From the NCBI GenBank assembly GCA_018433345.1, contig JAHDRK010000013.1, positions 7,482 to 71,481 of the forward strand: 64,000 bases of DNA, in the 5' to 3' direction. Source of the DNA: Syntrophobacterales bacterium (lineage in GTDB: Bacteria; Desulfobacterota; Syntrophia; Syntrophales; UBA2210). How positions within the stretch are numbered: position 1 is the stretch's first letter; every line of letters begins with the position of its first letter. The notes under the pieces are model-generated. The model was given only the letters and a program-made list of their open reading frames with translations. It was not told the origin of the DNA and made no database searches. The position numbers and the translations under genes were made by a program. Below, piece by piece: positions 34,710-53,560 of the stretch.

Positions 34710-37700
34710 ATGAACACTGAACCCGTCAACAATGACCCCTTGATCCTCAGGCATCGCCGTATTCTCGCCCAGGCGGCTGTTTTTGACGGCGATTTCAGCA
34801 TCGATTGGCTCCAGGAGCTTACAGGCGAGAAGGCATCCGTCATATTTTCAGCCCTTGAATACGCAGTCGAAGGGGGGCTGCTTTCCCGGATCGATCTCGC
34901 ACTCTTTTCGTTCATTGACGCTGATGAGAGGAACGCCCTCGTCAGGGAGCTGCCCACCGAGGAAGTCGAACCGCTGCACCGTAAGGCGGCCGCCCTGTTA
35001 TTCTCCAACATGCCGGAAGGTTCGGAGAGAACCACCCGTGTCGCCCGTCACCTGCTTCACCTTTCAAACGACTATGAGGGTTGTCGTATTCTGCTGGAGA
35101 ACGGAAACATCCACCGGCGCCGCTTCAGGGACGATGAGGCAAGAATCTTTTACGAAAAGGCACTCGACGATCTTCGCAGTATAAAAAACCGCAATGCCGA
35201 CCGACTCTTTATTCAATCAACTCTCGAGTACTGCAAGGTATCGACCGACAGCGACAAACAGAACCGCGTGATTGCAATCATAGAAGAGGCCATTGCCCGA
35301 GCCGAATCCGTCGGCGACCGGGATTCTCTGGGTTTCCTTGAAATGCAGCTCGGTAAAAGCGAATGGCTCCGTTCGCGCTACCCGGAAGCACTCCATCATT
35401 TCGAGAAGGGTTGGGACATGACCAAGAGCGCCGACGATGCGATTATCCAGAAATCCGCGACCATCCTGGGCATGTTCTATAATTACTGGTCGGGGCGATA
35501 CCGGGATGTGGTCGAGGTATATGAAAAGCTGGTCCCCAATGTAGAAGATCAGTTCCCCAAGGGACGCCTTCCCCTCCTCGCGGCGTTGACCGCCGGCGTA
35601 TGCCTGGGACATACGGGCCTTTATTCCCAAGCCCTGGGAATGCTGCATGCCATTCGCGGACACAGCCGTTCCATCGGTAACCTTTCAATGGCAGGACTTG
35701 CCGGAGTTTCCCTTGGATACCTCCTCCTGGAACTTCAGCGGCCCGATGACGCCATCCAGTGTATAATGGACTCATGGGAAGAAACGGAAACAAGCAAGAG
35801 CATTTACGCCCGCCTGGGCGGCCTCTGTCTGCTGGGATACGCCTATCTGCTCGTCGGTGATCACGATCGCGCCGTTGAATGTCTCAGGGAATACCTGGAC
35901 GAAAGCAGGCGGTCTCAAATGACTGTCAAGTATACAGCCCTCTGGATGCAGATCTGCCGGGCCATGGAGGAAGGTTCCTTCCCTCCCCTCGAAGGTCTTT
36001 CTCTAGAGGAGGAAATCGCTTATTCACTGAAAAGCGGCAATTTCCTCATGAAAGGCGTCGCCCATCGTTACCGGGCCATGAAAATGAGGCAAGCCCGTGA
36101 ACCCTCCGGCGCCATACTGGCGGAACTGGAAAAGTCCCTCGGCGATCTAGAGACCTGCGGCCACCAGGTTGAATTGGCCAATTCCAAGCTGGAGATCTCC
36201 CGTGAGTACATCCTTATGGGCGATCATGACCGGGCCGCCGAATTTGCAGGACCTGCCGCGCGAACTCTATACTCCTTTAACGAAGCCCTGGTTCCCGACG
36301 ATATAAGGCCCCTGGTGAAAGACTTACGCAAAGACAATGACTTGCTTGACGAAATTCTCAGGCTGAGCCAGGAGTTGGCCACTATCAGAGATTACGGGGA
36401 ACTGTTAAAGCGGATCGTATCGGCCAGCAACAGGATAACGTGTGCTGAGCGGGGTGCGGTTTTCGCTATAGAAGGCGGCCATCCCGAGAAGATCGTCCTC
36501 CGGTCGGCAAAAAATCTCACGGCGGAAGATGTAAAGATGCCCGAATTCGACCGGTCCATGAAACTTATCATGGAAACCGCCGGAAATCCACGTGGAAAAA
36601 TACTTGGAGAAATGGATCATGACAATCTCGGCAACGCCCGAGGGAGGGATATCATACGGTCCTGCATCTGCGTTCCACTGAAAATCAGGAACAAGCTTAA
36701 GGGAGTTCTTTATCACGACAACCGCCTTTTTAGAAGCGCATTCAAGGAATCAGACCTGGAAATTCTCGACTATTTCGCCACCCAGGCAGCCATAGCGATG
36801 GACAATGCCGAGGCCTGGGAAAGATTGCAGAACCTCTATGAAAAACAACAACTGGAAAAGGAGCATTACGAGAAAGAATACCTGGAAACGATCCACTTCG
36901 CAGATTTCGTGGGTAAAAGCCCGACCATCAGACAGGTTTTCGTGGAAGCCGAGCAGGTCGCCCAAACGGATGCCACCGTGCTGATTTTGGGTGAAACCGG
37001 AGTGGGAAAAGAACTGGTGGCTCGCTACATTCACCGCCACAGCTCCCGGGCCGACAAGCCCTTTATCAGGGTTCACTGTGGCGCCTTACCGGAAAGTCTA
37101 ATTTCGAGCGAACTTTTCGGCCATGAGAAGGGTGCCTTTACGGGAGCCACGTCCCGCCGTGTAGGTCGCTTCGAACTTGCAAACGGAGGGACCATTTTCT
37201 TGGACGAAATCGGCGACATATCGATGGAGGTCCAAGTAAGACTGCTGAGGATTCTCCAGCATAAAGAATTTGAGCGCGTGGGAGGCCATGAGACATTGCG
37301 TTCCGATTTCCGCCTTCTTGCCGCAACAAACCGAAACCTGGAAGAAGAAGTGGAAAACGGTCGATTCCGCCGCGACCTTTACTACCGGCTCAACGTCTTC
37401 CCCATCAGGGTTCCACCCCTACGCGAGCGAAAGGAGGATATCCCTTTACTGGCCCGCTACTTTCTCGACATCTATGCCAACAAGAGCAACAAACCCGTCA
37501 GCAAGCTGAAACCCGATGAAATGGGGAAGCTCCTGTCCTATGACTGGCCGGGCAATGTGAGGGAGCTCGAAAATGTCATCGAGCGCGGGGTAATCCTGGC
37601 AAAGGGTTCCATTTACAAGGTGCCTGACCTGAACGGCCCCCACCACCGAAGAAACGATGGATCATCCATGAATCTTCGAGAAAATGAACGGAATCACATT

Positions 37701-37883
37701 CTCAAGATTTTGAAAAAGACCGGTGGTAAAGTGGCCGGACCGGGAGGAGCTGCGGAAATCCTCGAAATCCATCCCAACACCCTCTTTTCGCGGATGAAAA
37801 AACTCGGGATCTCAAGGAAGGCGGATTACGTGTCAGGTCCTTCCCGGTCGACATCCGCAGGATGTCAGGATAACGATATCTAG
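34710..37883 (+). CDS. Sigma-54-dependent transcriptional activator with a long TPR-like N-terminal region and a GAF domain
   Basis: 1057 aa. AAA+ Walker A GETGVGKE, GAFTGA loop, FLDEIG, RRDLYYRLNV. C-terminal Fis-type HTH AAEILEIHPNTLFSRMKKLGI. A GAF-like segment sits at about residues 570-720 and helical repeats at about 1-560. Confidence 0.9.
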   Translation: MNTEPVNNDPLILRHRRILAQAAVFDGDFSIDWLQELTGEKASVIFSALEYAVEGGLLSRIDLALFSFIDADERNALVRELPTEEVEPLHRKAAALLFSNMPEGSERTTRVARHLLHLSNDYEGCRILLENGNIHRRRFRDDEARIFYEKALDDLRSIKNRNADRLFIQSTLEYCKVSTDSDKQNRVIAIIEEAIARAESVGDRDSLGFLEMQLGKSEWLRSRYPEALHHFEKGWDMTKSADDAIIQKSATILGMFYNYWSGRYRDVVEVYEKLVPNVEDQFPKGRLPLLAALTAGVCLGHTGLYSQALGMLHAIRGHSRSIGNLSMAGLAGVSLGYLLLELQRPDDAIQCIMDSWEETETSKSIYARLGGLCLLGYAYLLVGDHDRAVECLREYLDESRRSQMTVKYTALWMQICRAMEEGSFPPLEGLSLEEEIAYSLKSGNFLMKGVAHRYRAMKMRQAREPSGAILAELEKSLGDLETCGHQVELANSKLEISREYILMGDHDRAAEFAGPAARTLYSFNEALVPDDIRPLVKDLRKDNDLLDEILRLSQELATIRDYGELLKRIVSASNRITCAERGAVFAIEGGHPEKIVLRSAKNLTAEDVKMPEFDRSMKLIMETAGNPRGKILGEMDHDNLGNARGRDIIRSCICVPLKIRNKLKGVLYHDNRLFRSAFKESDLEILDYFATQAAIAMDNAEAWERLQNLYEKQQLEKEHYEKEYLETIHFADFVGKSPTIRQVFVEAEQVAQTDATVLILGETGVGKELVARYIHRHSSRADKPFIRVHCGALPESLISSELFGHEKGAFTGATSRRVGRFELANGGTIFLDEIGDISMEVQVRLLRILQHKEFERVGGHETLRSDFRLLAATNRNLEEEVENGRFRRDLYYRLNVFPIRVPPLRERKEDIPLLARYFLDIYANKSNKPVSKLKPDEMGKLLSYDWPGNVRELENVIERGVILAKGSIYKVPDLNGPHHRRNDGSSMNLRENERNHILKILKKTGGKVAGPGGAAEILEIHPNTLFSRMKKLGISRKADYVSGPSRSTSAGCQDNDI

Positions 37884-38094: not shown

Positions 38095-38109
38095 TGGCAC
38101 GATGATTGC
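38095..38109 (+). promoter_or_regulatory. Sigma-54 (-24/-12) promoter
   Basis: TGGCAC-gatga-TTGC is an exact match to the TGGCAC-N5-TTGC consensus. It lies 208 nt upstream of the SBP gene and directly downstream of the activator gene. Confidence 0.75.
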
Positions 38110-38316
38110 GTAATATGCAATGTGAAAGTTTGAGAAAGAACAGTATCACCGATGAAAACCAATTTTATCCTCACTTCAAAGAAAGCTTACCGGAAGGACC
38201 AGGCATTGATCGTCAAAAGCGTTGCACCGACCATCATCATTACGTCAAACATAGACATACATAAATTTATACGTTTCCCGCCGTAACAATCCAGCCACAC
38301 CAAAAAGGAGGGTGTC

Positions 38317-39579
38317 ATGCAAAAATCACGTCTACTTTTCATCGTCGTCAGCACCGTGCTGGCTGTTATCCTTTTTGCTTCCACGGCACCGGCCAAAAGA
38401 GAAAAAGAAATACGCTTGGGTTTCATGGGTGATCTTTCTGCTCCCTTTTCTCTGAGCGCCGAAGCCGCGGCGAAACTCGCCGTCGAAGAGATTAACGAAG
38501 CCGGCGGCATATTGGGAAGACCCGTTCGTCTCTTCGTAGAAGACACAGGCGGCGAGATTCCAAAGGGGATCGAAGTCTACAAAAAACTTGTTATGCACAA
38601 TCGGGTAAATGCGGTCATCGTGGCCGAAAAGGTTGAAATGGGGGTGGCCGGAATACAAATCGGGGCAGAGTTGTTCCGAGAGTTTCCCCACGTCATGTTT
38701 TCCACCATAGGTTCGGGTGATGCCATCTGGCACCATGTGCGAGATGATTATGACCGCTTCAAGTTCGGGTTCCAGACCTACTATTTCGTTTCGTCCCACT
38801 ACCTTGAAATTTTAGGCGGGAAACTTCTTCCAGACTTTTATGGCAACGTCGTAGGCGCAAAAAAGATCGCCATTCTTTACGAAGATATGGACTGGACCCG
38901 TCCCATCCGGCGCGGCCTCCCCGGCGTATCGCCTCCCCTCAAGGAAGTTTATGAAAACGCTGGATTTGAAGTCGTCTACGAGGCCACTCTTTCTCTCGAC
39001 CAGCAGGTGTTCAGTTCGATCTTCGAGCGGATAGCCCAGTCCGAAACAGATATCATCGACTGCGTAGTGGGTTACATAGACCAGGTTTCCTTCATCAAAC
39101 AATGGGTAGACTCGCCGGCAAGGAATATTCCATGGTTCTTCTGGGGAGGTATCGCAGGAATGCCCATGGCCTGGGATATGACGGGAGGGGCCATCGCGGG
39201 TGGTAGCATCGGTTCTTCCTTCGTGAGAGTGCCCATTACCGAAAAAACGATCCCTTTCATGGATAACATGATCGGAAAATACAAAGTGGGGCCCATCTTC
39301 GGTTCCCACACCACATATGACACAATATTCGGTTACCGGAAGGCCCTTGAACAGGCCGGTGACCTCAAGGATATCAACAGGATTATCAAAGAACTCGAAA
39401 ACGTAAGAGAAACAGCCGTCCTGGGAACCATCGGTTGGGATCCCAAGTATCACTATAATATACCGTATCCCGAGTACATAACGCCCATAGTGCAGTGGCA
39501 GGACGGTCAAATGGTGCCCGTCTATCCCGAGGACATCGCCCTTGGAAGCTTTAAACCGGTCACCGAGCTAAGAAAGTAA
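38317..39579 (+). CDS. ABC transporter substrate-binding protein (LivK/type I periplasmic binding fold)
   Basis: Signal peptide MQKSRLLFIVVSTVLAVILFASTAPA, EIRLGFMGDLS..., 420 aa. SD AAGGAGG. Confidence 0.85.
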   Translation: MQKSRLLFIVVSTVLAVILFASTAPAKREKEIRLGFMGDLSAPFSLSAEAAAKLAVEEINEAGGILGRPVRLFVEDTGGEIPKGIEVYKKLVMHNRVNAVIVAEKVEMGVAGIQIGAELFREFPHVMFSTIGSGDAIWHHVRDDYDRFKFGFQTYYFVSSHYLEILGGKLLPDFYGNVVGAKKIAILYEDMDWTRPIRRGLPGVSPPLKEVYENAGFEVVYEATLSLDQQVFSSIFERIAQSETDIIDCVVGYIDQVSFIKQWVDSPARNIPWFFWGGIAGMPMAWDMTGGAIAGGSIGSSFVRVPITEKTIPFMDNMIGKYKVGPIFGSHTTYDTIFGYRKALEQAGDLKDINRIIKELENVRETAVLGTIGWDPKYHYNIPYPEYITPIVQWQDGQMVPVYPEDIALGSFKPVTELRK

Positions 39580-41612: not shown

Positions 41613-41670
41613 CCCGTTTCAAGCAATGGGGAAATACAAGAGAGATGACCGACAAAGGAGATTATTCCTC

Positions 41671-42396: not shown

Positions 42397-42397
42397 A

Positions 42398-43102
42398 ATG
42401 CTTACCATCAAAAACCTGAACGTCTCTTACGGTGTCATTCCCGTCCTGCACAACGTAAACATGACAGTGGAAAAGGGTGAGTTGGTGGCCCTGCTCGGTT
42501 CAAACGGTGCAGGAAAAACTACGCTGTTGAACACAGTCTCCGGTATCCTCCAGGGGGCATCGGGAACGATCGAGTTTTTGGGAAAGCGAATTGAAAAGTC
42601 AGCCCCTCAGAATATTGTTCGCATGGGCATATCGCAGATCCCCGAAGGAAGAAAGATTTTTCCCTACATGACGGTCAAGGAAAACCTTTTCATGGGAGCA
42701 AGTACACGACAGGCATGGGGAAGTCGCCACGAAATGTTCGAACGGGTCACAAAATTATTTCCCATTCTTGAAGAGCGGAAAAACCAGCGGGCGAGTCTCA
42801 TGAGTGGCGGAGAGCAACAGATGCTCGTCATTGCCAGGGGACTTATGGCAAAACCGCTTCTCCTCATGATCGACGAACCATCTCTGGGATTGAGTCCTCT
42901 CTTTCAAAAGCAGATTTACCGGGCAATCGAAACCCTTCCAGAACAAGGAATAACCATCCTCTTGGCCGAACAGAATGCCCAGATATCGTTGGAAATAAGC
43001 AATAGAGGCTACGTCCTACAGGACGGCGAAATTGTCATGGGAGGAACAAGCGAAGAGTTATTAGCCAGTGATATGATAAGACAAGCATACTTGGGGGTTT
43101 AA
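42398..43102 (+). CDS. ABC transporter ATP-binding protein (LivF family)
   Basis: MLTIKNLNVSYG, GSNGAGKTT, MSGGEQQML, LLMIDEPS. Confidence 0.88.
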   Translation: MLTIKNLNVSYGVIPVLHNVNMTVEKGELVALLGSNGAGKTTLLNTVSGILQGASGTIEFLGKRIEKSAPQNIVRMGISQIPEGRKIFPYMTVKENLFMGASTRQAWGSRHEMFERVTKLFPILEERKNQRASLMSGGEQQMLVIARGLMAKPLLLMIDEPSLGLSPLFQKQIYRAIETLPEQGITILLAEQNAQISLEISNRGYVLQDGEIVMGGTSEELLASDMIRQAYLGV

Positions 43103-43108
43103 TAATAG

Positions 43109-44470
43109 ATGAACAGCGACTATTTTTCTTATACGGCATCTCTTTTCGACCGCTCGCGGGTTGAAGAGAAATCGGAGGCACTCAAAGGAATTCGGGTGCT
43201 CGACCTTTCGCACATGATTTTCGGTCCAAAGGCTGCCGATGTACTAGCCGAACACGGTGCCGAAGTGGTCAAGGTGGAAGTTCCATACCAGGGAGACTAC
43301 TGGCGGAGCGCAACCTATTGGGGTAAATACTGGAAGCACTCCAATCCCATGTGGCATTTCATCAATCACAGCAAATACTTTGTTGGCATCGATGTCAAGT
43401 ATCCAAAGGGCAAGGAGCTGATACTGAAACTGGCCGAGCAGTCCGACATCGTGATTGAAAACTTCGCCAGCGGAACGGTTGAAGCCTGGGGAATCGGCTA
43501 TACCCAGACCCGCGCCATCAATCCAAAGATCATTTATGCCAGCCTCAGCACTTATGGACAGACCGGTCCTTTCCGTTTTTTCCCGGGCTGGGATCTACTG
43601 GCCCAGGGCACCAGTGGCGTCATAAGTATCACCGGCTACCCCGACACCGAGTATTTTTTTAAGGTGCCGGACTTCTTCGGTGATTTCTATCCCGGCTTTT
43701 TTGCAGCAATGCTTATAATGATGGCGCTTAATCATCGGGAAAAAACCGGTGAAGGCCAGTATCTTGATGTCTGCCAGGCGGAAATCCTCATGCGCTCCCT
43801 CTTTCATTTCACTTACAGCAGCGTCACGGGACAAGAGCTGGGCAGAACGGGGAACCATGACCCTACAACCTCTCCATCAGGTATTTTCAAGACTTCCGAC
43901 GGCGGCTTCGTCGCGCTTTCCGTCGGAACGGATGAACAGTTCAAGGCCATCTGTGTCGAAATGAGCCGGGAAGACCTCGCCGATGATGGACGGTATGCCA
44001 AGGCCCTGAATAGACTTGATCCGACGCATGCCGATGAACTCAACGACATAGTCGCCCAATGGGTTGCCACAATGACACTCGAATCGGCACGGCGTCTTCG
44101 GGAAAATTGCCGTTTCCCCTTCAGCGTCGTGGAAGACGACGTCACCATATCCAAGGACGAATGGCGGCGGGAACGAGGAAGTGTCGTAGAATTCGACGAT
44201 ACAATGTACGGAAAGCTCGTCATGGCAGGTTCCGCAGCCATGATGAGCGAGACACCGGGACGCATCAAGTGGCTGACACGTCCCCTTGGGTACCACAATC
44301 GGTATATCTTCAAAACAAGGCTCGGATTGTCGGAGGAAGAAATTCGAGAGCTCGAAAAAGAGCGTGTGGTGGGCTACTGGGACTACCGCGTGGGCCAGAG
44401 ACCACCGGTTTATTACAAGATCGAGGAAGACAAAATTTTCAATTACGGTGATAAAGGCGATGTCCAGTAA
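43109..44470 (+). CDS. Family III CoA-transferase (CaiB/BaiF/Frc family), subunit 1
   Basis: LKGIRVLDLSHMIFGPKAADVLAEHGAEVVKVE and the catalytic-Asp region GWDLLAQGTSG; 453 aa. Confidence 0.88.
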   Translation: MNSDYFSYTASLFDRSRVEEKSEALKGIRVLDLSHMIFGPKAADVLAEHGAEVVKVEVPYQGDYWRSATYWGKYWKHSNPMWHFINHSKYFVGIDVKYPKGKELILKLAEQSDIVIENFASGTVEAWGIGYTQTRAINPKIIYASLSTYGQTGPFRFFPGWDLLAQGTSGVISITGYPDTEYFFKVPDFFGDFYPGFFAAMLIMMALNHREKTGEGQYLDVCQAEILMRSLFHFTYSSVTGQELGRTGNHDPTTSPSGIFKTSDGGFVALSVGTDEQFKAICVEMSREDLADDGRYAKALNRLDPTHADELNDIVAQWVATMTLESARRLRENCRFPFSVVEDDVTISKDEWRRERGSVVEFDDTMYGKLVMAGSAAMMSETPGRIKWLTRPLGYHNRYIFKTRLGLSEEEIRELEKERVVGYWDYRVGQRPPVYYKIEEDKIFNYGDKGDVQ

Positions 44471-45794
44471 GGAAAAAATCTATTCCAGGTACATGCAGAA
44501 CAGAAATGCGGCCAAGAGAATCTCCGAATGGAGTTCCGTCCTTTCCGAGATAATGTCTCCGGAGGGAAAACCAGAGGCTCTTAGCGACACAATGGTGCTT
44601 GACCTCAGTTATGCCAATTTCACGGGCATGATAGCTTCCAGTATTCTCGCCGAGGCGGGGGCGGAGGTCATCAAGGTGGAACCCCCCGAGGGCGATCCGG
44701 CGCGGCTCATGACCCCCTATGGAAAAACGATAGAAGGAACAGGGATCCCCTACATCATGGAATGTCGCAACAAGTACAATATCACCCTCGATATCTACAA
44801 GTACGATGACAGGGAAAAACTTTGCGCCCTGGTCAAAAAGGCGGACATTTTAATAGAAACCTTCGAACCCGGAATGATGGACGGACTCGGAATAGGATAT
44901 CGGCAACTCAAGGAGATCAATCCAGGCCTGATCTACGTCGCTATAACACCTTACGGTCAATATACGAAGGACGCGGAGAAACGTTCTTCATTGCCTTGGT
45001 CCGACCTTACCAGCCAGGCTGAATCGGGAATGGCGGCGCTGATCGGAGCCCTGCCCGATGACCCGGAACCTTTCAACTGGCCCACCCGAGCAGGGTTTCA
45101 CGCGGCAACATACACCAGCGCCGTATCGGCAGTGTGCAGCACCCTTATCGCGCTCTTTTTCAAACGGCGAAACGGGACGGGACAGATGATCGACGTAGCC
45201 ACGGCTGATTCCTATTCTTCCTGCGTAGGGTTCCCGCCGACCATAGGTTACATATGGAAAAAACCAAGACCGCGTTACGGAACCCTGGATTACGGACTGT
45301 GTCCCTATGGTTTTTTCAAGTGCAAGGACGGCTATGTCGCCATAGCCTGCTTCCGTGACCAGGATTTTCGCGCGGCGCTCCGCATTCTTGGTCTCTGGAA
45401 AATCGAAGAAGAGTGGAAAACGCTTCTCGACAGAATCACCGATGACATTGAAAGGGCGAAAACTCTAAACCGCGAAATCGAAAAGGTCGTGGCTTCGATG
45501 ACCTTCGATGAAATATTTCAAAAATTTCAGGAATTCAGTATAAAGGCAGCACGTTCTAAGTGGCGCGGCGGGGGTCTTCCTGTTACCACCAAGATGCTTC
45601 ATCCCATGGAGGTCATGGAGGTGGAGCACTGGAAGGCCCGAAACGCCTTTTTTAAGGCGGACGACAAGTATTACGGGATATTCCAGGTACCTGTCACCGG
45701 CAAGATGTCCAAGACGCCCTTGCGCATCAAAAGGATCGCCGCCCGCATAGGTGAAGACACAACATACATTTTTGAAAAATACGGTATATCGTGA
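44460..45794 (+). CDS. Family III CoA-transferase, subunit 2
   Basis: MVLDLSYANFTGMIASSILAEAGAEVIKVEPPEGDP and WSDLTSQAESG. ATG 44460 overlaps the upstream stop by 11 nt. The track start 44286 is internal to the previous gene. Confidence 0.85.
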   Translation: MSSKEKIYSRYMQNRNAAKRISEWSSVLSEIMSPEGKPEALSDTMVLDLSYANFTGMIASSILAEAGAEVIKVEPPEGDPARLMTPYGKTIEGTGIPYIMECRNKYNITLDIYKYDDREKLCALVKKADILIETFEPGMMDGLGIGYRQLKEINPGLIYVAITPYGQYTKDAEKRSSLPWSDLTSQAESGMAALIGALPDDPEPFNWPTRAGFHAATYTSAVSAVCSTLIALFFKRRNGTGQMIDVATADSYSSCVGFPPTIGYIWKKPRPRYGTLDYGLCPYGFFKCKDGYVAIACFRDQDFRAALRILGLWKIEEEWKTLLDRITDDIERAKTLNREIEKVVASMTFDEIFQKFQEFSIKAARSKWRGGGLPVTTKMLHPMEVMEVEHWKARNAFFKADDKYYGIFQVPVTGKMSKTPLRIKRIAARIGEDTTYIFEKYGIS

Positions 45795-45922
45795 TATCGG
45801 CGGTAAGCTCAAAAAAATAGCCGAGGTGATAACATAATAGTGACACAAAGAAAGCCGCCTTCTTGGAATGTCCGGAATAACGGGTATCGAAGACGGACGG
45901 AGAGTGAGAAACGGGTGGAGCC

Positions 45923-47521
45923 ATGAAGGAAAAAAAGAAAGACGTGGACCTCGACGAAATCAGGCCCGACCTGGCGGAGACCATCGAGCGCCACCGCCTG
46001 ACCCTCGACGAAGCCCGTCCGGAGGCCGTAAAGAAAAGGCACGAACGAAACCAGCGTACCATACGGGAAAATATCGCCGACCTGCTCGATCCGACTGGCT
46101 CAATAGAGTACGGATCCCTCGCCCTGGCCGCCCAGCGACAGCGGATCCCAATGGATGAGTTGATGAAGAAGACCCCCGCCGATGGTCTTATCGCCGAAGT
46201 GGGATCGGTGAACGGAGACCTCTTCGGGCAACAAAAAAGCCGTTGCATGGTGCTGGGGTATGATTACACCGTCCTCGCCGGAACCCAGGGCTGGTTCAAT
46301 CACAAGAAAAAAGACAGGATGCTGAAACTCGCCTATAAATGGAGGATCCCCGTGGTCCTCTTCGCCGAAGGTGGGGGCGGCCGTCCGGGTGACGTGGACA
46401 TGACCGATATCGTCGTCGCCGGGCTGGATTTCATGTCCTTTACGCTGTTTGCCCGGCTAAGCGGCCTTGTGCCGTTGGTCGGTGTGGTAAGCGGCCGCTG
46501 CTTCGCCGGCAACGCGGCCCTCCTGGGATGCTGTGACGTTATAATAGCAACCAAAGATTCGAATATAGGCATGGCCGGCCCCGCTATGATCGAAGGCGGG
46601 GGGCTGGGGGTGTTCGCACCCGAGGACGTGGGCCCCATTTCCATTCAGTCTCCCAACGGCGTCGTGGATATAGTCGCTGAAGACGACGCCGATGCCGTTG
46701 CCAAGGCAAAATGGTATCTTTCTTACTTCCAGGGGGATATGCCGACCTGGGATTGCGCCGATCAACGTCATTTGCGCCACGTCGTCCCGGCAAACCGGAG
46801 GCGGGCGTATAACGTCCGAAGGGCCATAGAGATCCTGGCGGACAGTAAGTCGGTACTGGAACTGCGACCCGAATTCGGAATTGGAATCGTCACGGCCCTT
46901 GTGAGGATAGAAGGAAAGCCCTTCGGGTTGATGGCCAACAACACATTCCACTTGGCCGGGGCGATCGATTCCGACGGCGCCGACAAGGCATCCCGGTTTG
47001 TTCAACTCTGCGACGCCTTTGACCTGCCGGTAATCGTTCTCATCGACACGCCGGGCTTCATGGTGGGACCCGAAGCGGAAAAGACGGCGCAGGTCCGCCA
47101 TTTCGGCCGTATCTTTCTGAATGCCGCCAATGCCGATATCCCGGTTTTCAGTGTCGTGCTAAGGAGGGGGTACGGACTCGGTGCCATGGCAGTAGCCGGG
47201 GGCAGTTTTCACAACTCCGATTTTATCGTTTCATGGCCCACCGGTGAATTCGGGGGCATGGGGCTGGAGGGCGCCGTCCGCCTCGGTTTTAAAAAGGAAC
47301 TAGAGGCAATCGATGATCCCGAGGAAAGGGAAAAGCGCTTCGAGGAACTTGTGGGCCTTTACTACGAACGGGGCAAAGCTGTCAACATGGCCTCGTGCTT
47401 GGAAATAGACAACGTGATCGACCCCGCGGACACCCGTCGCTGGATCATGCAAGGTCTTCGCTCACAACCGGAACGCCGACTGCGAACCACGAAAAAGCGA
47501 CCCAACATAGACGGGTGGTAA
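45923..47521 (+). CDS. Acyl-CoA carboxyltransferase (biotin-dependent enzyme CT/beta subunit), lineage 1
   Basis: 532 aa. RTIRENIADLLDPTGSIEYG, FAEGGGGRPGD, and a second crotonase-like half ending ..IDNVIDPADTR. Confidence 0.85.
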   Translation: MKEKKKDVDLDEIRPDLAETIERHRLTLDEARPEAVKKRHERNQRTIRENIADLLDPTGSIEYGSLALAAQRQRIPMDELMKKTPADGLIAEVGSVNGDLFGQQKSRCMVLGYDYTVLAGTQGWFNHKKKDRMLKLAYKWRIPVVLFAEGGGGRPGDVDMTDIVVAGLDFMSFTLFARLSGLVPLVGVVSGRCFAGNAALLGCCDVIIATKDSNIGMAGPAMIEGGGLGVFAPEDVGPISIQSPNGVVDIVAEDDADAVAKAKWYLSYFQGDMPTWDCADQRHLRHVVPANRRRAYNVRRAIEILADSKSVLELRPEFGIGIVTALVRIEGKPFGLMANNTFHLAGAIDSDGADKASRFVQLCDAFDLPVIVLIDTPGFMVGPEAEKTAQVRHFGRIFLNAANADIPVFSVVLRRGYGLGAMAVAGGSFHNSDFIVSWPTGEFGGMGLEGAVRLGFKKELEAIDDPEEREKRFEELVGLYYERGKAVNMASCLEIDNVIDPADTRRWIMQGLRSQPERRLRTTKKRPNIDGW

Positions 47522-47650
47522 AGCAATCTTGGAGGAACCACGATCTCTCGAACAAACCAACGAGAAAAACCCGGGAATGGAACCGGGCATTCGCTGCGGG
47601 GCCTTTGTGATCTCCTCGTGCCCTGTTGAAGAAATCCCTTTGATGGCGGT

Positions 47651-47872
47651 ATGTTCATGGCAATCGACATAAAGGCCCCCATGCCCGGCATCATAATGGA
47701 AATCCTCGTAGACGAAGGCTACACAGTCAGACGTGACGACGAGCTCCTGATCCTGGAAGCGATGAAGATGGAAAATCCAATCCGCTCACCGGAAGACGGC
47801 GTCGTGAAAACCATCCTCGTGAGAAAAAAGGACTTCGTCGATACCGACCAGATCATCATGTCCCTGGAGTAG
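47651..47872 (+). CDS. Stand-alone biotin carboxyl carrier domain protein
   Basis: 73 aa with biotinyl-lysine motif LEAMKMENPI. There is no N-terminal extension. Confidence 0.85.
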   Translation: MFMAIDIKAPMPGIIMEILVDEGYTVRRDDELLILEAMKMENPIRSPEDGVVKTILVRKKDFVDTDQIIMSLE

Positions 47873-48004
47873 ATCCCTTCGATCGGGATTTATGTTTTTC
47901 CTGGGGACGAAAACACCCGGGATACGAAGGATAAAACGCCTCGTAATCGCCTTCTGTTTACCCTTCAATGAATATAAAGTCTTGAGGAAGGAGAAACAAA
48001 AACC

Positions 48005-49561
48005 ATGGCCTTTGAAAAACAGTTGGAAGAACTCAGGCAGAAAAAAGAGCGGGCGCTCATGATGGGAGGACCCGAAAAAATCAAAAAGCAGCACGACGCG
48101 GGCAAATACACGGCCCGCGAACGCATCGACAAGCTGCTCGATGGGGGAAGCTTCGATGAAATCGGGATGCTGAGCCATTCCGACATGCCGGGAATGGCTC
48201 ACAAGAGCCCTGCCGACGGCAAGGTGGGCGGCTACGGCCTTATAAACGGGCGTCCGGTAGGAGTCCTTGCCGCCGATTTCACAGTCCTTGGGGCCACATC
48301 GAGCCGCGTGGCGGGACGAAAGGAACATGACATCAGGAGCACGGCGGACCGCCACGGGTTTCCCGTCATATACCTGGGCGAGGCCGGAGGTGCCCGAATG
48401 CCGGATATAATGGGCTCGGCGGGGCTGGCCTCCTACGGTGGCGGCGGAAGGGACACCTTCCTGCAACTGATGAGCCGTGTCCGAAGAACTCCACTGGTAA
48501 CGGCGATCTTAGGCCTCTGCTACGGGGAACCGACATGGATGGCTTGCCTTGCCGATTTCGTGGTCATGGTCAAGGGTACGGCCATGGGTGTTTCGGGTCC
48601 TCGGATACTGTCAATCGCCTTGGGCGAAGAGATAACCGACGAGGAGCTCGGAGGCTGGGAGCTGCACGCAAAGGTGACGGGAATGACCGATCGGACGGCG
48701 GAAAACGAGGATGAGTGTTTCAAGATTATACGGGATTACCTGGATTACATGCCTTCGCACAATGAGGAAGTTCCTCCCGCAAAGGAGGTTCCGGAAGGAT
48801 CGGGTGAAAACATGTCAAAAATCCTCGACATCATCCCGGAAAAGCGAAACAGGGCCTACGACATGAACCGGGTGATCGAGTGCATTGTAGACCGGGAGAG
48901 TCTTTTCCCCATCAAGCCGCTGTTCGGCCAAACGGCCATCACTTCTCTGGCACGAGTGGACGGAAAGGTCGTGGGCATCGTGGCGAACCAGCCTCGCGTC
49001 AACTCGGGGGCCATGGATACCGATGGAATCGAAAAGGTCATCAGCTTTCTTTGTCTCTGCGACTCCTTCAACATTCCATTGATCTTTCTTGAAGACATTC
49101 CGGGATTTCTCGTGGGATGCGCCGCCGAGAGAAAACGGGTGGGCGCCCACGTCATGAATTTCATGAATGCCTTGGGGCTTGTGACTGTCCCAAAGATCAC
49201 TATCATTATGAGAAAGGCCTATGGAATGGCCTTCTGGAACATGTGCGGTTCCGGAAGCGGGGCCGATTCGATCGTCGCGTGGCCCACCGCCGAAATGAGT
49301 TTCGTCGATCCCGTCATCGCCGCCAACGTGGTCTACGGCGCCACTGCGGCGGCTACACCGGAGGAAAAGGAAGAACGGATAGCCAAGATGGCCGAGGGTA
49401 CCGACCCTTACGGAGCCGCTGGCCTACACTATATTCAAGATGTCATCGATCCGCGGGAAACGAGGAACCACATTATCAAGGTGCTGCGGCGGACTCGGGA
49501 TTTTTCAAAAACGAAGGGAATAGGCGAACACAAACTGGCCAACTGGCCTACGAAATTCTAA
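48005..49561 (+). CDS. Acyl-CoA carboxyltransferase (12S/PccB/MmdA-like), lineage 2
   Basis: 518 aa. GGPEKIKKQHDAGKYTARERIDKLLDGGSFDEIG, LGEAGGARMPD, ..IQDVIDPRETR. SD GAAGGAG. Confidence 0.88.
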   Translation: MAFEKQLEELRQKKERALMMGGPEKIKKQHDAGKYTARERIDKLLDGGSFDEIGMLSHSDMPGMAHKSPADGKVGGYGLINGRPVGVLAADFTVLGATSSRVAGRKEHDIRSTADRHGFPVIYLGEAGGARMPDIMGSAGLASYGGGGRDTFLQLMSRVRRTPLVTAILGLCYGEPTWMACLADFVVMVKGTAMGVSGPRILSIALGEEITDEELGGWELHAKVTGMTDRTAENEDECFKIIRDYLDYMPSHNEEVPPAKEVPEGSGENMSKILDIIPEKRNRAYDMNRVIECIVDRESLFPIKPLFGQTAITSLARVDGKVVGIVANQPRVNSGAMDTDGIEKVISFLCLCDSFNIPLIFLEDIPGFLVGCAAERKRVGAHVMNFMNALGLVTVPKITIIMRKAYGMAFWNMCGSGSGADSIVAWPTAEMSFVDPVIAANVVYGATAAATPEEKEERIAKMAEGTDPYGAAGLHYIQDVIDPRETRNHIIKVLRRTRDFSKTKGIGEHKLANWPTKF

Positions 49562-49582
49562 ATTCACCATCCTCGATGGTTT

Positions 49583-49617
49583 CCGCCGCTTCCCCCTCCA
49601 TAAACGGGAAGCGGCGG
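49583..49617. terminator. 12-bp GC hairpin between convergent genes (no U-tract)
   Basis: CCGCCGCTTCCC-N11-GGGAAGCGGCGG. Confidence 0.45.
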
Positions 49618-49627
49618 ACCTCGACTT

Positions 49628-50266
49628 TCACTGATTCCCTTCGGCCCGGCCCAGATCCCGGCGGGCGGACCAGAGCCTGTGAATCGCCGTGAGATTCGTG
49701 GAGACGGCCATGAACCATAGGATGAGGATCAAGGGGGCGTCCGGTGAAATGGAGGGGAGCCAAGCCTCGGCCACCGGTACCGCCAGCGAGGCGGCTGCAA
49801 GAAAAATAATGCGTTCCGGTCTTTGCATGAAACCAACCACCCTGATCGTACCCAGCGATTCGGCGCGAGCCTTTACGTAACTAACCATGTAGGAACCGGC
49901 GATGACGAAAAGGACCGCGTAAAAAGTTACATCGTTGCGGTAATGGACCAGGAGGCCGGCCAATATCAGAAAATCGGCCACCCGGTCGGCGCTCGAATCG
50001 AGCAATGCACCGAATCGGCTCGCGCTCCCGCTCAAGCGCGCCACCGTTCCATCGAGGGTATCGAGCAGACCTGAGAGGAGAAGGGCCAATCCGGCCCAGA
50101 AAAAGAACCCGCCGGCATAGAGAAAAAAAACCCCCAGCGACACCGCCAGGGAAAACAGCGTCAGCGCGTTGGGGGTGATAGGCCCATTGGCAAGCGGTCC
50201 GGCGAGTGTCTCCATGCATCTATAATAATATCTTACGATTCGTTCCCGCACGGTCGCATCCTCCAA
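49628..50266 (-). CDS. CDP-alcohol phosphatidyltransferase family protein
   Basis: DTLDGTVARLSGSASRFGALLDSSADRVAD is the full D-x2-DG-x2-AR..G-x3-D-x3-D motif. TTG start at 50266 with GGAG 6 nt upstream; ATG 50215 is an alternative. Confidence 0.85.
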   Translation of the reverse strand: MEDATVRERIVRYYYRCMETLAGPLANGPITPNALTLFSLAVSLGVFFLYAGGFFFWAGLALLLSGLLDTLDGTVARLSGSASRFGALLDSSADRVADFLILAGLLVHYRNDVTFYAVLFVIAGSYMVSYVKARAESLGTIRVVGFMQRPERIIFLAAASLAVPVAEAWLPSISPDAPLILILWFMAVSTNLTAIHRLWSARRDLGRAEGNQ

Positions 50267-51204
50267 AAGGTCTCCACGGCAAAACGCACCCTATCTTCCG
50301 GCGCTGCGTGTTTTTTCTTCAAATCTTCGACGACACGGAGTCGCGGCACCAGCCCTCCGCCGTTGGCGAGCTGGATGTTAAGGCCGGGTCTTGCATTCAG
50401 TTCGAGCAATACCGGACCGCGTTTTTTGTCCAGGACAATGTCGGCGCCGATATATCCAAGTCCGGTCATTTCGTAACAACATGATGCCAACCTCAGTATT
50501 TCCCGCCATCCGGGAACGCGGACCAGATCGAAGGCCTTGTTGGTGTCGGGATGCCTTTCAATGGGGCGCGAGTACTGAACGGCGTTTATGATTTTCCCAT
50601 CCGATATGTCGAGACCCACTCCGACCGCGCCCTGGTGGAGATTGGCCTTGCCGTCCGAAACGCGTGTTGTAAGGCGGAGCATGGCCATGACAGGATAACC
50701 TTGAAAGACTATTATTCTAATGTCGGGGACACCCTCCCAAGAATAATCCGCAAAGATATCGTCACAGTGGATCAATTCTTCCACGATTGCGGCATCGGGC
50801 GTGCCTGCCAGGGAATACAGACCTCCCAGTATGTTGGACACGTGTCGCTTGAGATCATTGAGCGTAATCGCCGCCCCAGAGGATTTTATGTAGGCATTCG
50901 GACCGCTTTCCTTGATTATAAGTATTCCCTTTCCCCCCGATCCCCGCGCAGGTTTTACGGCGAATCCTTCCAGGTTCTCCAGGAGGCCCGCGAGATCACG
51001 GACCCTGTGCTGTTCCCGCATAGAAAAATAAAGCTCGGGAACCGGAATGCCGTATTTCCGGGCAAGCACCTTGGTCTTGAGCTTGTCATCGACGAGGGGA
51101 TAGAGGGAACGAGGGTTGTAACGGGCGATGAATTCTATGTTTCGTCGATTCATGCCTAGGATTCCAAGTTTCCTCAACTGTCCAAGCCCGATGAATCTCG
51201 TCAT
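50233..51204 (-). CDS. RimK-related ATP-grasp ligase (alpha-L-glutamate ligase-like protein)
   Basis: GILGMNRRNIEFIARYNPR, VKPARGSGGKGILII, GADIVLDKKRGPVLLELNARPGL; 323 aa. Confidence 0.85.
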   Translation of the reverse strand: MTRFIGLGQLRKLGILGMNRRNIEFIARYNPRSLYPLVDDKLKTKVLARKYGIPVPELYFSMREQHRVRDLAGLLENLEGFAVKPARGSGGKGILIIKESGPNAYIKSSGAAITLNDLKRHVSNILGGLYSLAGTPDAAIVEELIHCDDIFADYSWEGVPDIRIIVFQGYPVMAMLRLTTRVSDGKANLHQGAVGVGLDISDGKIINAVQYSRPIERHPDTNKAFDLVRVPGWREILRLASCCYEMTGLGYIGADIVLDKKRGPVLLELNARPGLNIQLANGGGLVPRLRVVEDLKKKHAAPEDRVRFAVETFWRMRPCGNES

Positions 51205-52718
51205 GACCGGGATATCCTACGCAGGCTGCTGAATCTCCTCAATTCAAACAATCTGTATCCTGTGTAATTCCCCATAAGCATAATCAGGGCGACGACAATC
51301 AAATTTATCTCGGGAAAATGAAAGGTCAGATGTTGCGTCACCCTCCACTGCATCAACAGGTAGGCCAGCACTGCGACCAAGAGACTCCCCGCCCCCTGCA
51401 CGAACACCTCCCAGGGTCCCTCGTCCTCCCACAGGATAGACATGCGCTCGATGGTCCAAGCAATGATGATGATAGGGAAAAAGGTGACTGTCATCCCCGT
51501 GTTGAACCCCAGCTGATAGCCAAAGAGACTGAAAAAAATCACTATAAAAACGACGATTACCACAATGGTGGAAATGCGGGCAACTAACAAAAGGTTCAGG
51601 TTGGACAGATAGCCACGCAGAAGCAAACCGAAAGAAACGATCGCTATGAAACTCACCAGACCGGGCAATAGTGTGGTTTGGAGAAATGAAAGCGCAATGA
51701 GTATGGGCATGAAAGTTCCGGATGTTTTTACTCCCACGATTATTCTCATAAAAACCAGTACCAGCGCCCCAACGGGCAAAAGAAGCAGTATCCGCAAAAG
51801 GTTCTGCTCTTCCACTGGGAGTTTGTGCACCCCGAGCAGCGCGAATCCCGAATCCTTCATGGTTTCCTGCGCCAACTGTATGGTCGAAATACTCCGTTGA
51901 AGCATGGCGAACCGCGTTTGTGAACTTTCGCCTCCGCTCACGTCGAGAAGGGATTGTCCTTCCAGGTTCCACAGGAAAAAATTCTCTGGAATCCCCTGGT
52001 ATCCGGTTACGGGATTGAACAACACCCATCCGCCATTCGTGTATACCTCTATCATCTCCCGTAACTGTTGGTTCCGACGTCCGTCTTCCAGGTAAAGACC
52101 GGCCACTATCCTGGTCGGGATACGAGCGTAATTAAGCAATTTTACAAGTAACGGCACAAGCGGGGTCTCCGCGAGCAGCAGCGCGGCGTTTTGGTTGGCC
52201 GACGGTTCCGCGAGCAGTTTTATCAATTCACGGGTCATGCTTTCCGGCGTACTGGACATCGAATGGGCTGCGGCCAACAGTTGGTTTGCGGCGAGCGCCT
52301 CGGGTTCATTCCAATAAACGTCAAATAATTGTGGAGGAGGATCATCCCTTTTTTGGCGGGGGATTGTTTGGGGGGCAACCTCCACTTTGTAATAAAGTGT
52401 TTGGGGACCCTCGGCGTTTCGTATCGTCCATTCTCCCCGCCTGTTACCGTTTTCGTTGATAACGGAAAAGCCGTAGCCTGGAGACGCCGTTTGTTCCGAC
52501 AGGATGACAAAGCCCGGGGGGTCATCGGGGATGTCCAGGGTCACCGTCACCGTCCCTCCATGCGCGACGAAATCGACGCGGGCCTCTATCAGCCAGACCG
52601 TCGTCTGATCTCCCGGAAGAAGGGGGATGCCAGTCTGATTGTGGCGAGCCCAAAGAGTCGCCAGGCCTGTCACGATGAGGCACAGTACAATAATATGAAA
52701 AAATATTCGAGAGGTCAT
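51201..52718 (-). CDS. Membrane protein: extracytoplasmic (inactive transglutaminase-like) domain fused to a ~7-TM C-terminal module
   Basis: An N-terminal TM helix (FFHIIVLCLIVTGLATLWA), a soluble region of about 280 aa, then roughly 7 hydrophobic helices in residues ~300-490. ATGA overlap with the ATP-grasp gene. Confidence 0.75.
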   Translation of the reverse strand: MTSRIFFHIIVLCLIVTGLATLWARHNQTGIPLLPGDQTTVWLIEARVDFVAHGGTVTVTLDIPDDPPGFVILSEQTASPGYGFSVINENGNRRGEWTIRNAEGPQTLYYKVEVAPQTIPRQKRDDPPPQLFDVYWNEPEALAANQLLAAAHSMSSTPESMTRELIKLLAEPSANQNAALLLAETPLVPLLVKLLNYARIPTRIVAGLYLEDGRRNQQLREMIEVYTNGGWVLFNPVTGYQGIPENFFLWNLEGQSLLDVSGGESSQTRFAMLQRSISTIQLAQETMKDSGFALLGVHKLPVEEQNLLRILLLLPVGALVLVFMRIIVGVKTSGTFMPILIALSFLQTTLLPGLVSFIAIVSFGLLLRGYLSNLNLLLVARISTIVVIVVFIVIFFSLFGYQLGFNTGMTVTFFPIIIIAWTIERMSILWEDEGPWEVFVQGAGSLLVAVLAYLLMQWRVTQHLTFHFPEINLIVVALIMLMGNYTGYRLFELRRFSSLRRISRS

Positions 52719-53560
52719 TACGGCCTTGTGATGTCGCCCGGAGGTTCCGGAGGAAGCCCGGGCGGCGCTATGTATGTCTCGCTCACGTCCACCACCATGA
52801 CATCCTTGAGTACATTGCGACCGATCAAGACGGGATGCTCCATGTGACTGCGGTCGGAGAGCGTAAACTGGGCGATTTGATTGATCCCGCCGACGGTCAC
52901 ACTCAGCTCAACCACCGGGCGCCGATCAACCTCTTTCGACAGGGCTTGTATGATCTTCGCGCTGCGCACCAAGGGCCGTTCCAAGGTGTATTCTTCGCTA
53001 TTCTCAGGGTTTACAATAGTAAAGCGAATCCACTCATCTCCGTTTCGCTCGAATTTCTGAATATTGTGCGCATTCAGCGAAGATGTCACAGCACCTGTGT
53101 CAATCCTGGCAGGAAGTATTTTCCCGGGAGGCGTGATGAAAACTTTTTCCACGGCCCCCACTACCTGTTTGTCTCTCAACCTAGCTCCGGTGGATTTTCC
53201 AGCGGATTTTCCAGTGGATTTTCCGACGGCCTCCCGGCGCTCGCTTTTAACTGCCTCCCGCTCGCGAAGGCGCATCGCATGCACGACTTTTTCTATTTCA
53301 TCTAGACGCCCTTCCAGTTGTTCCTGCCTGCAAGAGATATCCCTCAACTGTAGAAACATGGCTTGAGAATAATCCGCCATCGCCTGGTTCATAATCACTT
53401 GCTCCCGTGCCATCACCCGTATCCATTCGGCCTGTTCTTGCGTGTTTTTCTCAATTTCACGGAGTTCCGCCTCTTTGATGAGCAACGAGTAGTTGGCGCA
53501 CCCCACGAAAAAAAAGATGAATGCTGAAAATAAGATATAGAGGAATACATCTCTTTTCAC
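52718..53560 (-). CDS. Membrane-anchored coiled-coil protein with a C-terminal retropepsin-like domain (family usually annotated 'putative ATP-dependent zinc protease')
   Basis: N-terminal anchor VFLYILFSAFIFFFVGC, a heptad-rich segment, a (GKS[TA])3 linker, then ARIDTGAVTSSL ... PVLIGRNVL. TAATG overlap with the next gene. Confidence 0.75.
   Translation of the reverse strand: MKRDVFLYILFSAFIFFFVGCANYSLLIKEAELREIEKNTQEQAEWIRVMAREQVIMNQAMADYSQAMFLQLRDISCRQEQLEGRLDEIEKVVHAMRLREREAVKSERREAVGKSTGKSAGKSTGARLRDKQVVGAVEKVFITPPGKILPARIDTGAVTSSLNAHNIQKFERNGDEWIRFTIVNPENSEEYTLERPLVRSAKIIQALSKEVDRRPVVELSVTVGGINQIAQFTLSDRSHMEHPVLIGRNVLKDVMVVDVSETYIAPPGLPPEPPGDITRP

Follow-up and report, generated by a model that had tools for sequence, protein, structure and literature searches.

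In the glutaconyl-CoA decarboxylase (Gcd) of Acidaminococcus fermentans, a carboxyltransferase (CT) removes CO2 from a dicarboxylyl-CoA and hands it to a biotin carrier, and the gene of the CT, gcdA, is separate from the "second operon" gcdDCB, in which the genes of the beta, delta and carrier subunits are found (Braune 1999, according to the passages of PMC7145394 and PMC2996986 that cite it). This is a precedent for the splitting of such genes. Here we describe a locus in a stretch of 64,000 nucleotides from a Syntrophobacterales bacterium (assembly GCA_018433345.1, contig JAHDRK010000013.1, positions 7,482 to 71,481), hereafter the window, which contains genes for two CTs, CT1 and CT2, and, between them, the gene of a bare biotin carrier. 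We propose, with a probability of about 0.45, that these genes code for the soluble components of an acyl-CoA decarboxylase of the Na+-pump type, which would be split, with its membrane subunit encoded elsewhere. The three genes are the following:

45923..47521, + strand: CT1, a stand-alone CT of the lineage of single-chain LCC (carboxylase of long-chain acyl-CoA), 532 amino acids (aa), 667 bits to residues 571-1070 of structure 4rcn
47651..47872, + strand: bare biotinyl carrier domain with the motif EAMKME, 71-73 aa, Biotin_lipoyl with E 4e-19, likely start at 47657
48005..49561, + strand: CT2, a CT of a family of about 520 aa found throughout Desulfobacterota and Syntrophales, PccB/12S/MmdA group, 518 aa, 356 bits to structure 1vrg

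In A. fermentans, gcdA lies beside the genes of the two-subunit glutaconate CoA-transferase. The CoA-transferase associated with Gcd belongs to family I, whereas that of the window belongs to family III. Unlike Gcd, which has a single CT, the window has two, both distant from GcdA (60-80 bits), and the carrier gene lies with the CT genes. In the carriers GcdC and MmdC of the Na+-decarboxylases, the biotinyl domain is accompanied by an Ala/Pro linker and by an anchor at the N-terminus (PMC7145394); the carrier of the window has neither. The methylmalonyl-CoA decarboxylases (Mmd) of Veillonella parvula and Propionigenium modestum, MmdABCD(E), are similar to the locus in that CT2 falls in the same broad PccB/12S/MmdA group and that the carrier scores against the MmdC model. 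In contrast to Mmd, no MmdB or MmdD is encoded at the locus, and CT2 scores 402 bits against TIGR01117 (MmdA), whose cut-off is 999, which means that CT2 is not an MmdA equivalog.

The transcarboxylase of Propionibacterium, which consists of the 12S, 5S and 1.3S subunits, is ATP-independent, and its carrier shuttles CO2 between two CT sites. The first-pass annotation of the window proposed a similar shuttle between CT1 and CT2, and CT2 indeed scores 312 bits against 12S (1on3). However, the second site of transcarboxylase is the TIM-barrel 5S subunit, which acts on pyruvate, and the window is without 5S. The 1.3S subunit has an N-terminal tether, which is not found in the carrier of 71-73 aa. 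To our knowledge, no enzyme has been purified, characterised or assigned for acyl-CoA:acyl-CoA transcarboxylation. The concept is not new, since the transfer of CO2 from alkylmalonyl-CoA to propionyl-CoA has been proposed for the anaerobic degradation of n-alkanes (Wilkes et al. 2002, in the form in which a passage of PMC4561516 cites it). That proposal is a pathway hypothesis with the same chemistry; unlike its setting, the window contains no alkylsuccinate synthase or mutase genes.

Two further systems are relevant. In actinomycetes, several CT subunits share a single biotin carboxylase (BC) subunit whose gene lies elsewhere (AccA3 for several AccD). The mycobacterial LCC complex AccA3-AccD4-AccD5-AccE5 contains two divergent CTs, and its BC subunit is encoded elsewhere (PMC13012033; PMC4347857). 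The window likewise has two divergent CT genes, and its BC, if any, is not at the locus, but the mycobacterial complex is ATP-dependent and biosynthetic, unlike the operon as we read it. As for the CoA-transferases, BbsEF (succinyl-CoA:(R)-benzylsuccinate CoA-transferase) is a heteromeric family III pair which acts on a dicarboxylate, and both CoA-transferase proteins of the window match BbsE/BbsF, with a low similarity (68-133 bits).

The two carboxyltransferases and their carrier

Both CTs contain the two crotonase-like halves in one chain. Residues 39-528 of CT1 correspond to positions 2-492 of the 493 positions of the Pfam model Carboxyl_trans (E 3e-71), and residues 28-495 of CT2 to positions 1-476 of the same model (E 1e-105). 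The open reading frames, the halves and the motifs given in the first-pass annotation were all confirmed. The annotation also took the two CTs for members of distinct lineages rather than for a recent duplication, and the comparison agrees: because they are only 29% identical, CT1 and CT2 are, judging from their sequences, old paralogues.

The N-terminus of CT1 had been described as similar to that of the MCC/GCC beta subunits, and this assignment must be revised. With residues 571-1070 of 4RCN, the single-chain LCC, CT1 reaches 667 bits (E 1e-199), and with the CT of the Deinococcus carboxylase (5FIF) 629 bits, versus only 138-150 bits with MCC/GCC beta. The best structure outside the LCC group reaches 230 bits, and CT1 is thus placed among the CT domains of the LCC clade. 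The alignment with the CT domain of LCC is nearly gapless over about 500 residues, and the active-site motifs FAEGGGGRPGD and GYGLGAMA are identical. CT1 differs from the single-chain enzyme in that it begins where the linker that follows the biotin carboxyl carrier protein (BCCP) domain begins: neither BC nor BCCP is fused to it, as it aligns only to residues 571-1070 of LCC and the upstream gene codes for a CoA-transferase.

Each stage of gene fission is represented in the CT1 family. The BC-BCCP-CT relatives of about 1100 aa, which include proteins of Desulfatibacillum alkenivorans and other Desulfobacteraceae, are 62-68% identical to CT1, the BCCP-CT relatives of about 600 aa are 64-69% identical, and the stand-alone clade of about 530 aa includes homologues that are 71-85% identical. 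A scan of a genome collection with CT1 (loci L001-L082) was dominated by the single-chain LCCs of Bradyrhizobium and Pseudomonas, and gave little on the stand-alone clade; a BC query found BC upstream of the CT in 74 of these 82 loci.

CT2 scores 300-356 bits within the PccB/12S/MmdA group, with the highest value against 1VRG, which is in keeping with the 12S-like character that had been attributed to it. It has no close characterised relative. It belongs to a very large family of proteins of about 520 aa from Desulfobacterota and Syntrophales, in which the motifs GEAGGAR[MIL]PD and RK[AST]YGMA[FY]WNM are kept throughout. We rejected the idea that this family represents classical GcdA, since the score against 1pix/3gf3 is only 80 bits, despite neighbours that are centred on crotonyl-CoA (3-hydroxyacyl-CoA dehydrogenase, thiolase and an AbfD-like protein). 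A literature search for gene identifiers of the Gcd subunits of Syntrophus aciditrophicus, which bears on whether the CT2 family is the GcdA of that organism, returned none.

Regarding the active sites, the first oxyanion motif, equivalent to G182-G183 of PccB, is kept in CT1 (FAEGGGGRPGD) and in CT2 (GEAGGARMPD). The second motif, equivalent to G419-A420, is in CT1 the GYGLGAMA core of the active LCC. In CT2 it is YGMAFW, versus FGGAY(D) in the PccB of Streptomyces, with Met in place of G419 and Trp in place of the specificity residue D422; this variant is kept family-wide. The position equivalent to G419 is occupied by Leu in LCC and CT1, and by Phe, Tyr or Met in partner CTs elsewhere, so that the Met of CT2 does not, on present sequences, look like the sign of a pseudo-enzyme. 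CT2 is probably active, since it is the backbone that supplies the hydrogen bonds, and Leu stands at this position in LCC itself. By their sequences, the active sites of both CTs are probably intact.

The biotin carrier with the EAMKME motif had been announced as a protein of 73 aa, and the Biotin_lipoyl match bears out its identity; gene callers applied to identical contigs start it at 47657, which gives 71 aa instead of the 73 aa of the open reading frame that begins at 47651. It is of the PycB/OadA/MmdC type and not of the AccB type. The gene is intact, with its MKM motif, and is conserved at 99-100% in many samples of the species. The locus has the CT and the biotinylated MKM carrier that are found in the Na+-translocating decarboxylases Oad, Mmd and Gcd.

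A likeness of about 22 nucleotides between the sequence just before the carrier start and that just after the carrier stop is without statistical support. The corresponding direct repeats, ATCCCTTTGATGGCGGTATGTT and ATCCCTTCGATCGGGATTTATGTT, noticed by eye, were considered as the scar of an insertion, and this was rejected because a repeat search and a MAFFT alignment gave results at the level of chance. A weak hairpin with a T-rich tail (47869-47893), right after the stop codon of the carrier, is equally without statistical support.

The partners that CTs have in other biotin enzymes were searched for in the window. No BC was found by tblastn with the BC domain of LCC or by Pfam on all large open reading frames, none of which contains a 5S-type TIM-barrel (HMGL-like) domain either. 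The sole ATP-grasp protein of the window (50233-51204) is of the ATPgrasp_ST/RimK type and is not a BC.

Relatives of the locus in other genomes

The closest orthologue of CT2 outside the species (82% identical) is encoded directly downstream of an OAD_beta gene, on a contig of 2.47 Mb (locus L091). The closest homologue of the carrier whose context is readable (P0264, 62% identical) is also a bare domain of 71 aa, and it belongs to an operon with the order OAD_gamma (48 aa), OAD_beta (373 aa) and carrier (L185). No CT gene is present within 10 kb on either side of this pump module. This shows that the membrane pump and the carrier can be encoded apart from the CT genes in this group of organisms, and that a bare carrier without anchor or linker evidently serves an OAD pump.

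The OAD_beta protein of L091 (8567-9856, 429 aa) has an insertion of about 80 aa in the first cytoplasmic loop (LRAPSPGMVSRLSVERGDSFECGAAIVATDAGEITSPVYGRVAKFRVTENQRVDAGDVVAVIV), which is not present in the OAD_beta of L185. This extra segment is similar to a biotinyl/lipoyl barrel-sandwich domain, but the MKM lysine is missing from it. Three small open reading frames that follow CT2 in L091 were considered as gamma or delta subunits and rejected, as they are fragments of a frameshifted sigma-54 activator.

More than ten public assemblies contain the arrangement CT1-carrier-CT2, with an identity of 99-100%; all are of the same species, and the arrangement was not found outside it. The first-pass annotation had suggested checking whether the triad is conserved across genomes; it is confined to one species. 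Hundreds of homologues of the genes of the locus exist at 65-85% identity, so the genes are real.

In sister operons, the two CTs are found separately. L087 (GCA_018399535.1), whose protein cluster includes "delta proteobacterium MLS_D", has the importer and CoA-transferase cassette followed by CT1 only (CoA-transferases 82-83% and CT1 78% identical): it is collinear with 42727-47450 of the window and resumes at 49653, without carrier and without CT2, to continue into the genes found downstream in the window (CDP-alcohol phosphatidyltransferase, MltA, GNAT, RecN, NAD kinase and RdgC). L094 and L138 have the cassette followed by CT2 only: their collinearity with the window covers 38419-45784 and starts again at 48005, without CT1 and without carrier, and in L094 the CoA-transferases are 79 and 76% and CT2 82% identical. 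CT2-type genes likewise follow CoA-transferase genes in L128, L140, L146 and L147. No biotinyl domain was detected by motif scan or tblastn in any of these seven loci; most matches of the AMK motif scan for hidden carriers in loci with only CTs were false, as they came from 3-hydroxyacyl-CoA dehydrogenase (NPALVMKLVEV). The spacers of the window, L087, L094 and L138 are too diverged to decide between insertion and deletion. It appears from the cassettes with CT1 only or CT2 only, which have no carrier gene, that each CT can serve a pathway with partners encoded elsewhere.

The stand-alone homologues of CT1 (71-85% identical) adjoin genes for dicarboxylate-type importers of the tripartite ATP-independent periplasmic kind (TRAP, DctPQM; L083) or ADP-forming acyl-CoA synthetases (L001 and L002), or stand alone. 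No carrier, BC or CT2 is encoded beside those that were examined. Their neighbours fit with a decarboxylation followed by energy-conserving cleavage of the thioester.

The neighbourhoods of the CT2 family were surveyed in 80 metagenomic loci, among which no BC, no 5S-type neighbour and no second CT of the CT1 type was found. A carrier is present only in the window species and in L101. The neighbours are genes of acyl-CoA catabolism. The commonest are 3-hydroxyacyl-CoA dehydrogenase (at position -1 in 21 loci) and NMO (at +1 in 20); thiolases, AbfD/HpaB-like proteins, short-chain dehydrogenases/reductases, alpha/beta hydrolases, acyl-CoA ligases and acyl-CoA dehydrogenases are also common. Lone CTs are the rule, and about 9 of the 80 loci hold a second divergent CT. 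A second or third divergent PccB/12S-like CT is encoded within 10 kb, usually without carrier, in L098, L099, L141/L142, L158, L159, L168 and L092.

L101 (28-7000), from a marine metagenome, encodes a PccB-like CT, an acyl-CoA ligase, a CT2-type CT (70% identical), a bare carrier of 70 aa (45% identical) and a second acyl-CoA ligase. Neither BC nor OAD_beta is encoded on this contig of 14.6 kb. It is a second, independent locus with two CTs and a bare carrier.

The transcription unit and its surroundings

A sigma-54 activator gene and an apparent single transcription unit occupy positions 34710-49561 of the window, on the + strand. Upstream of the three genes described above, it consists of:

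34710..37883, + strand: sigma-54-dependent transcriptional activator, 1057 aa, TPR + GAF + AAA+ + HTH (Pfam Sigma54_activat E 8e-72, plus GAF and TPR)
38095..38110, + strand: sigma-54 promoter-like site TGGCACGATGATTGCG of the -24/-12 type (consensus match only, 1 mismatch)
38317..39579, + strand: periplasmic substrate-binding protein of an ATP-binding cassette (ABC) importer (Peripla_BP_6, Pfam)
39700-40575 and 40569-41612, + strand: two ABC permeases (BPD_transp_2 on identical contigs)
about 41671-42396 and 42386/42398-43102, + strand: two ABC ATPases (ABC_tran on identical contigs)
43109..44470, + strand: family III CoA-transferase subunit 1, 453 aa (CoA_transf_3 E 6e-94)
44460..45794, + strand: family III CoA-transferase subunit 2, 444 aa (CoA_transf_3 E 9e-78)

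The site TGGCACGATGATTGCG is the top sigma-54 -24/-12 match of the whole window and lies 207 nucleotides 5' of the first transporter gene, although the total number of consensus matches with 2 mismatches in the window is not above chance. No comparable sigma-54 site and no convincing terminator were found between the later genes of the operon, scans for internal sigma-70 promoters and terminators gave results at chance level only, and an Rfam scan of 37800-49800 returned no match. We infer that the genes of the importer, the CoA-transferases, CT1, the carrier and CT2 are cotranscribed.

The importer, with its binding protein, two permeases and two ATPases, is of the branched-chain type. In L094 and L138, the first gene of this cassette likewise codes for an orthologue of the binding protein (61-67% identical). 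The two CoA-transferase genes are adjacent and divergent in sequence, with an overlap of 11 nucleotides, and the pair is conserved in L087, L094, L128 and L138, as is expected of a heteromeric family III enzyme of the BbsEF kind. The closest solved structures are formyl-CoA transferase, YfdE, SUGCT and BbsF for subunit 1, and a CaiB/BaiF-family protein (4ed9, the best), SUGCT, formyl-CoA transferase and BbsE for subunit 2.

The G+C content at third codon positions is 0.55-0.61 in the transporter and CoA-transferase genes, versus 0.69 in CT1, 0.74 in the carrier and 0.67 in CT2, and the shift recurs in L087 and L094. This step is compatible with a mosaic origin or with differing expression levels.

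The family of TPR-GAF sigma-54 activators adjoins three set-ups that handle carboxyl groups, which suggests a shared class of effector. In addition to the operon of the window, an orthologue that is 65% identical (L004, 3076-6273) precedes an AMP-ligase and a full single-chain LCC, and another, frameshifted into fragments that are 56-75% identical (L091, 11920-14373), comes after OAD_beta-CT2. Eight independent Logan assemblies of the species stop exactly at position 37118 of the window, inside the AAA+ region of the activator; the probable cause is a repeat common to paralogous activators.

Downstream, a cassette of three genes on the - strand (50233-53560) separates the CDP-alcohol phosphatidyltransferase gene from that of MltA, and is an insertion relative to the syntenic L087. 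Its products are the ATPgrasp_ST/RimK-like ligase, a transglutaminase-like protein with 7TM and a RimB-like protein. Near the end of the window is a DDE transposase (62512-63693, DUF4372 and DDE_Tnp_1). The genes at 5628-14466 (a flavoprotein similar to L-aspartate oxidase and fumarate reductase, the glycine-cleavage T and split P proteins, a major facilitator superfamily transporter and lipoyl synthase) and at 26975-28342 (a nickel-insertion protein of the LarC type) are unrelated to the CTs and their carrier.

Function of the locus and its implications

The gene content, the integrity of the domains, the synteny, and the association of a CT2 orthologue and of a carrier homologue with OAD_beta in relatives are direct observations. 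We read the operon as a sigma-54-controlled catabolic unit for an imported carboxylic acid, probably a dicarboxylate. The ABC system would import the (di)carboxylic acid, and the two-subunit, BbsEF-like CoA-transferase would turn it into a malonyl-type or glutaconyl-type carboxy-acyl-CoA. CT1 and/or CT2 would then shift the free carboxyl group to the biotin of the carrier, which would leave a shortened acyl-CoA, and an OAD_beta-type subunit encoded elsewhere in the genome would decarboxylate the carboxybiotin and export Na+ (or H+). We infer the direction of the reaction, the dicarboxylate substrate and the existence of the beta subunit in this genome. The choice of a dicarboxylate is favoured by the similarity of the CoA-transferases to enzymes that act on oxalate (formyl-CoA transferase and YfdE), glutarate or hydroxymethylglutarate (SUGCT) and benzylsuccinate (BbsEF). 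It had been suggested earlier that the adjacent CoA-transferases supply the thioester, and this is plausible. In sister operons, CT1 and CT2 stand in for each other at one and the same place, so they would most simply be alternative or parallel alpha subunits with differing acyl specificity, which would share one carrier and one pump. They may differ in their preference for the acyl chain; LCC-type pockets accept long or bulky chains.

Several observations weigh against such a split decarboxylase. In agreement with the first-pass annotation, which had reported neither BC nor a membrane decarboxylase subunit in the 64 kb, we detected no OAD_beta (PF03977) in the window by tblastn with OAD_beta or by Pfam on the large open reading frames, and no OAD_gamma (PF04277) by Pfam on the same open reading frames. 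Among the 80 loci of the CT2 family, OAD_beta is present only in L091/L097, which are one genome. The carrier is without N-terminal anchor and without Ala/Pro linker. CT1 descends from an ATP-dependent carboxylase (LCC) and not from the alpha subunit of a decarboxylase. Last, in the series of syntenic operons a carrier gene accompanies the two CTs together but neither CT alone, a pattern that a CT-to-CT shuttle explains more naturally. On the other side, the absence of BC and beta genes in cis appears to be weak evidence in this lineage, since the comparative data include CTs of relatives whose partners would be encoded elsewhere, and the anchor and linker are not universal in carriers of the pump type, as the carrier that lies beside OAD_beta in L185 is equally bare.

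The first-pass annotation regarded an ATP-independent acyl-CoA:acyl-CoA transcarboxylase, made of CT1, the carrier and CT2, as the simplest reading. Its observations stand (the CTs are of two lineages, the carrier is bare, and the 64 kb encode neither BC nor beta subunit), but the step to a new enzyme does not follow from them, given a triad confined to one species, operons with a single CT and the pump-linked carriers of the L185 kind, and we consider it rather unlikely. In this model, CT2 would take CO2 from a carboxy-acyl-CoA and CT1 would carboxylate a second acyl-CoA, namely the ester that the imported acid forms with CoA; the two roles may also be exchanged. CT2 would more likely be on the donor side, as its relatives are associated with decarboxylases and its orthologue in L091 pairs with a decarboxylase beta subunit; CT1 would more likely be on the acceptor side, because of its carboxylase ancestry: its nearest fused relatives are ATP-dependent carboxylases, one of which (L004) is under an orthologous sigma-54 activator. 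The model is consistent with the three genes, which seem to share a transcription unit while BC, OAD_beta and 5S are all missing from the 64 kb, with the carrier that accompanies only the two-CT version in the syntenic series, with the composition of L101 (two CTs, a bare carrier of 70 aa and two ligases, and no BC or beta subunit on the contig), with the second divergent CT of about 9 in 80 CT2-family loci, and with the saving of ATP that it would bring to an energy-limited anaerobe. A transfer of this kind has been postulated for anaerobic alkane degradation, as far as the passage of PMC4561516 goes. It is more difficult to reconcile with operons that persist with CT1 or CT2 only, so that neither CT obligatorily needs the other in cis, with loci that have two CTs and no carrier gene (L099, L159 and L168), and with the nearest homologue of the carrier with context, which belongs to a pump module. 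The carrier has no tethering segment like the N-terminus of 1.3S, and no pair of donor and acceptor can be named. If the transcarboxylase existed, it would be a new type of biotin enzyme and an ATP-saving route of carboxylation, in which a thermoneutral carboxyl exchange replaces the ATP-driven step of relatives such as L004, and it would be the first enzyme assigned to a transcarboxylation that has long been postulated for the anaerobic metabolism of hydrocarbons and fatty acids.

That CT1 and/or CT2 belong to ATP-dependent carboxylases acting on the CoA ester which the CoA-transferases form, with the carrier charged by a housekeeping or shared BC encoded elsewhere, much as AccA3 serves several AccD in actinomycetes, seems to us improbable. 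In its favour, single-chain LCCs, among them those of Desulfobacteraceae (L004, L005 and L054), have CT domains with 62-68% identity to CT1, the CT1 family runs through every stage of gene fission (about 1100, 600 and 530 aa), the orthologous regulator of L004 controls an acyl-CoA ligase and a full LCC, and a holoenzyme that contains BC together with two different CTs has a precedent in the mycobacterial LCC (PMC13012033). Yet no BC is encoded in the window or beside any of the examined stand-alone homologues of CT1 or CT2, the carrier is of the OadA/PycB/MmdC type rather than AccB, the operon encodes nothing to process a carboxylated product, and a carboxylation that spends ATP would be costly for such an anaerobe. 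It may also be imagined that the lone CTs decarboxylate their substrates directly or with free biotin, like the CT-related subunits MdcD/MdcE of malonate decarboxylase, and that the carrier is accessory or a leftover, since most CT1-type and CT2-type genes of relatives have no carrier, BC or beta gene nearby. With free biotin, GcdA on its own can decarboxylate glutaconyl-CoA (Braune 1999, in the passage of PMC2996986 that cites it), and the second oxyanion motif of CT2 departs from that of PccB (Met for G419). We give this explanation very little credit: the carrier gene is intact, with its MKM motif, and conserved at 99-100% across samples of the species, CT1 retains all the motifs of an enzyme whose use of biotin is biochemically proven, LCC too has a bulky residue where PccB has G419, which is thus no evidence for lost use of biotin, and OAD_beta beside the CT2 orthologue implies carboxybiotin chemistry.

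The split decarboxylase is the best of these readings. The individual parts of the locus are all of known kinds. Their combination is unusual and appears to be undescribed: a stand-alone CT derived from LCC, a second CT that is 12S/MmdA-like, and a bare carrier, all in an operon with CoA-transferase and ABC importer genes. The three natural variants of the operon (CT1 only, CT2 only, and both with the carrier) offer a ready comparison for a biochemical test. If the locus codes for the soluble part of a split decarboxylase, Desulfobacterota and Syntrophales would use CTs as exchangeable cartridges in substrate-specific operons for uptake and activation, and CTs of differing ancestry, one of which is an LCC domain stripped of its BC and BCCP, would feed one carrier and one Na+ pump. 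This would explain the many "orphan" acyl-CoA carboxylase beta genes that are annotated in these genomes, and would point to energy conservation driven by the decarboxylation of dicarboxylates.

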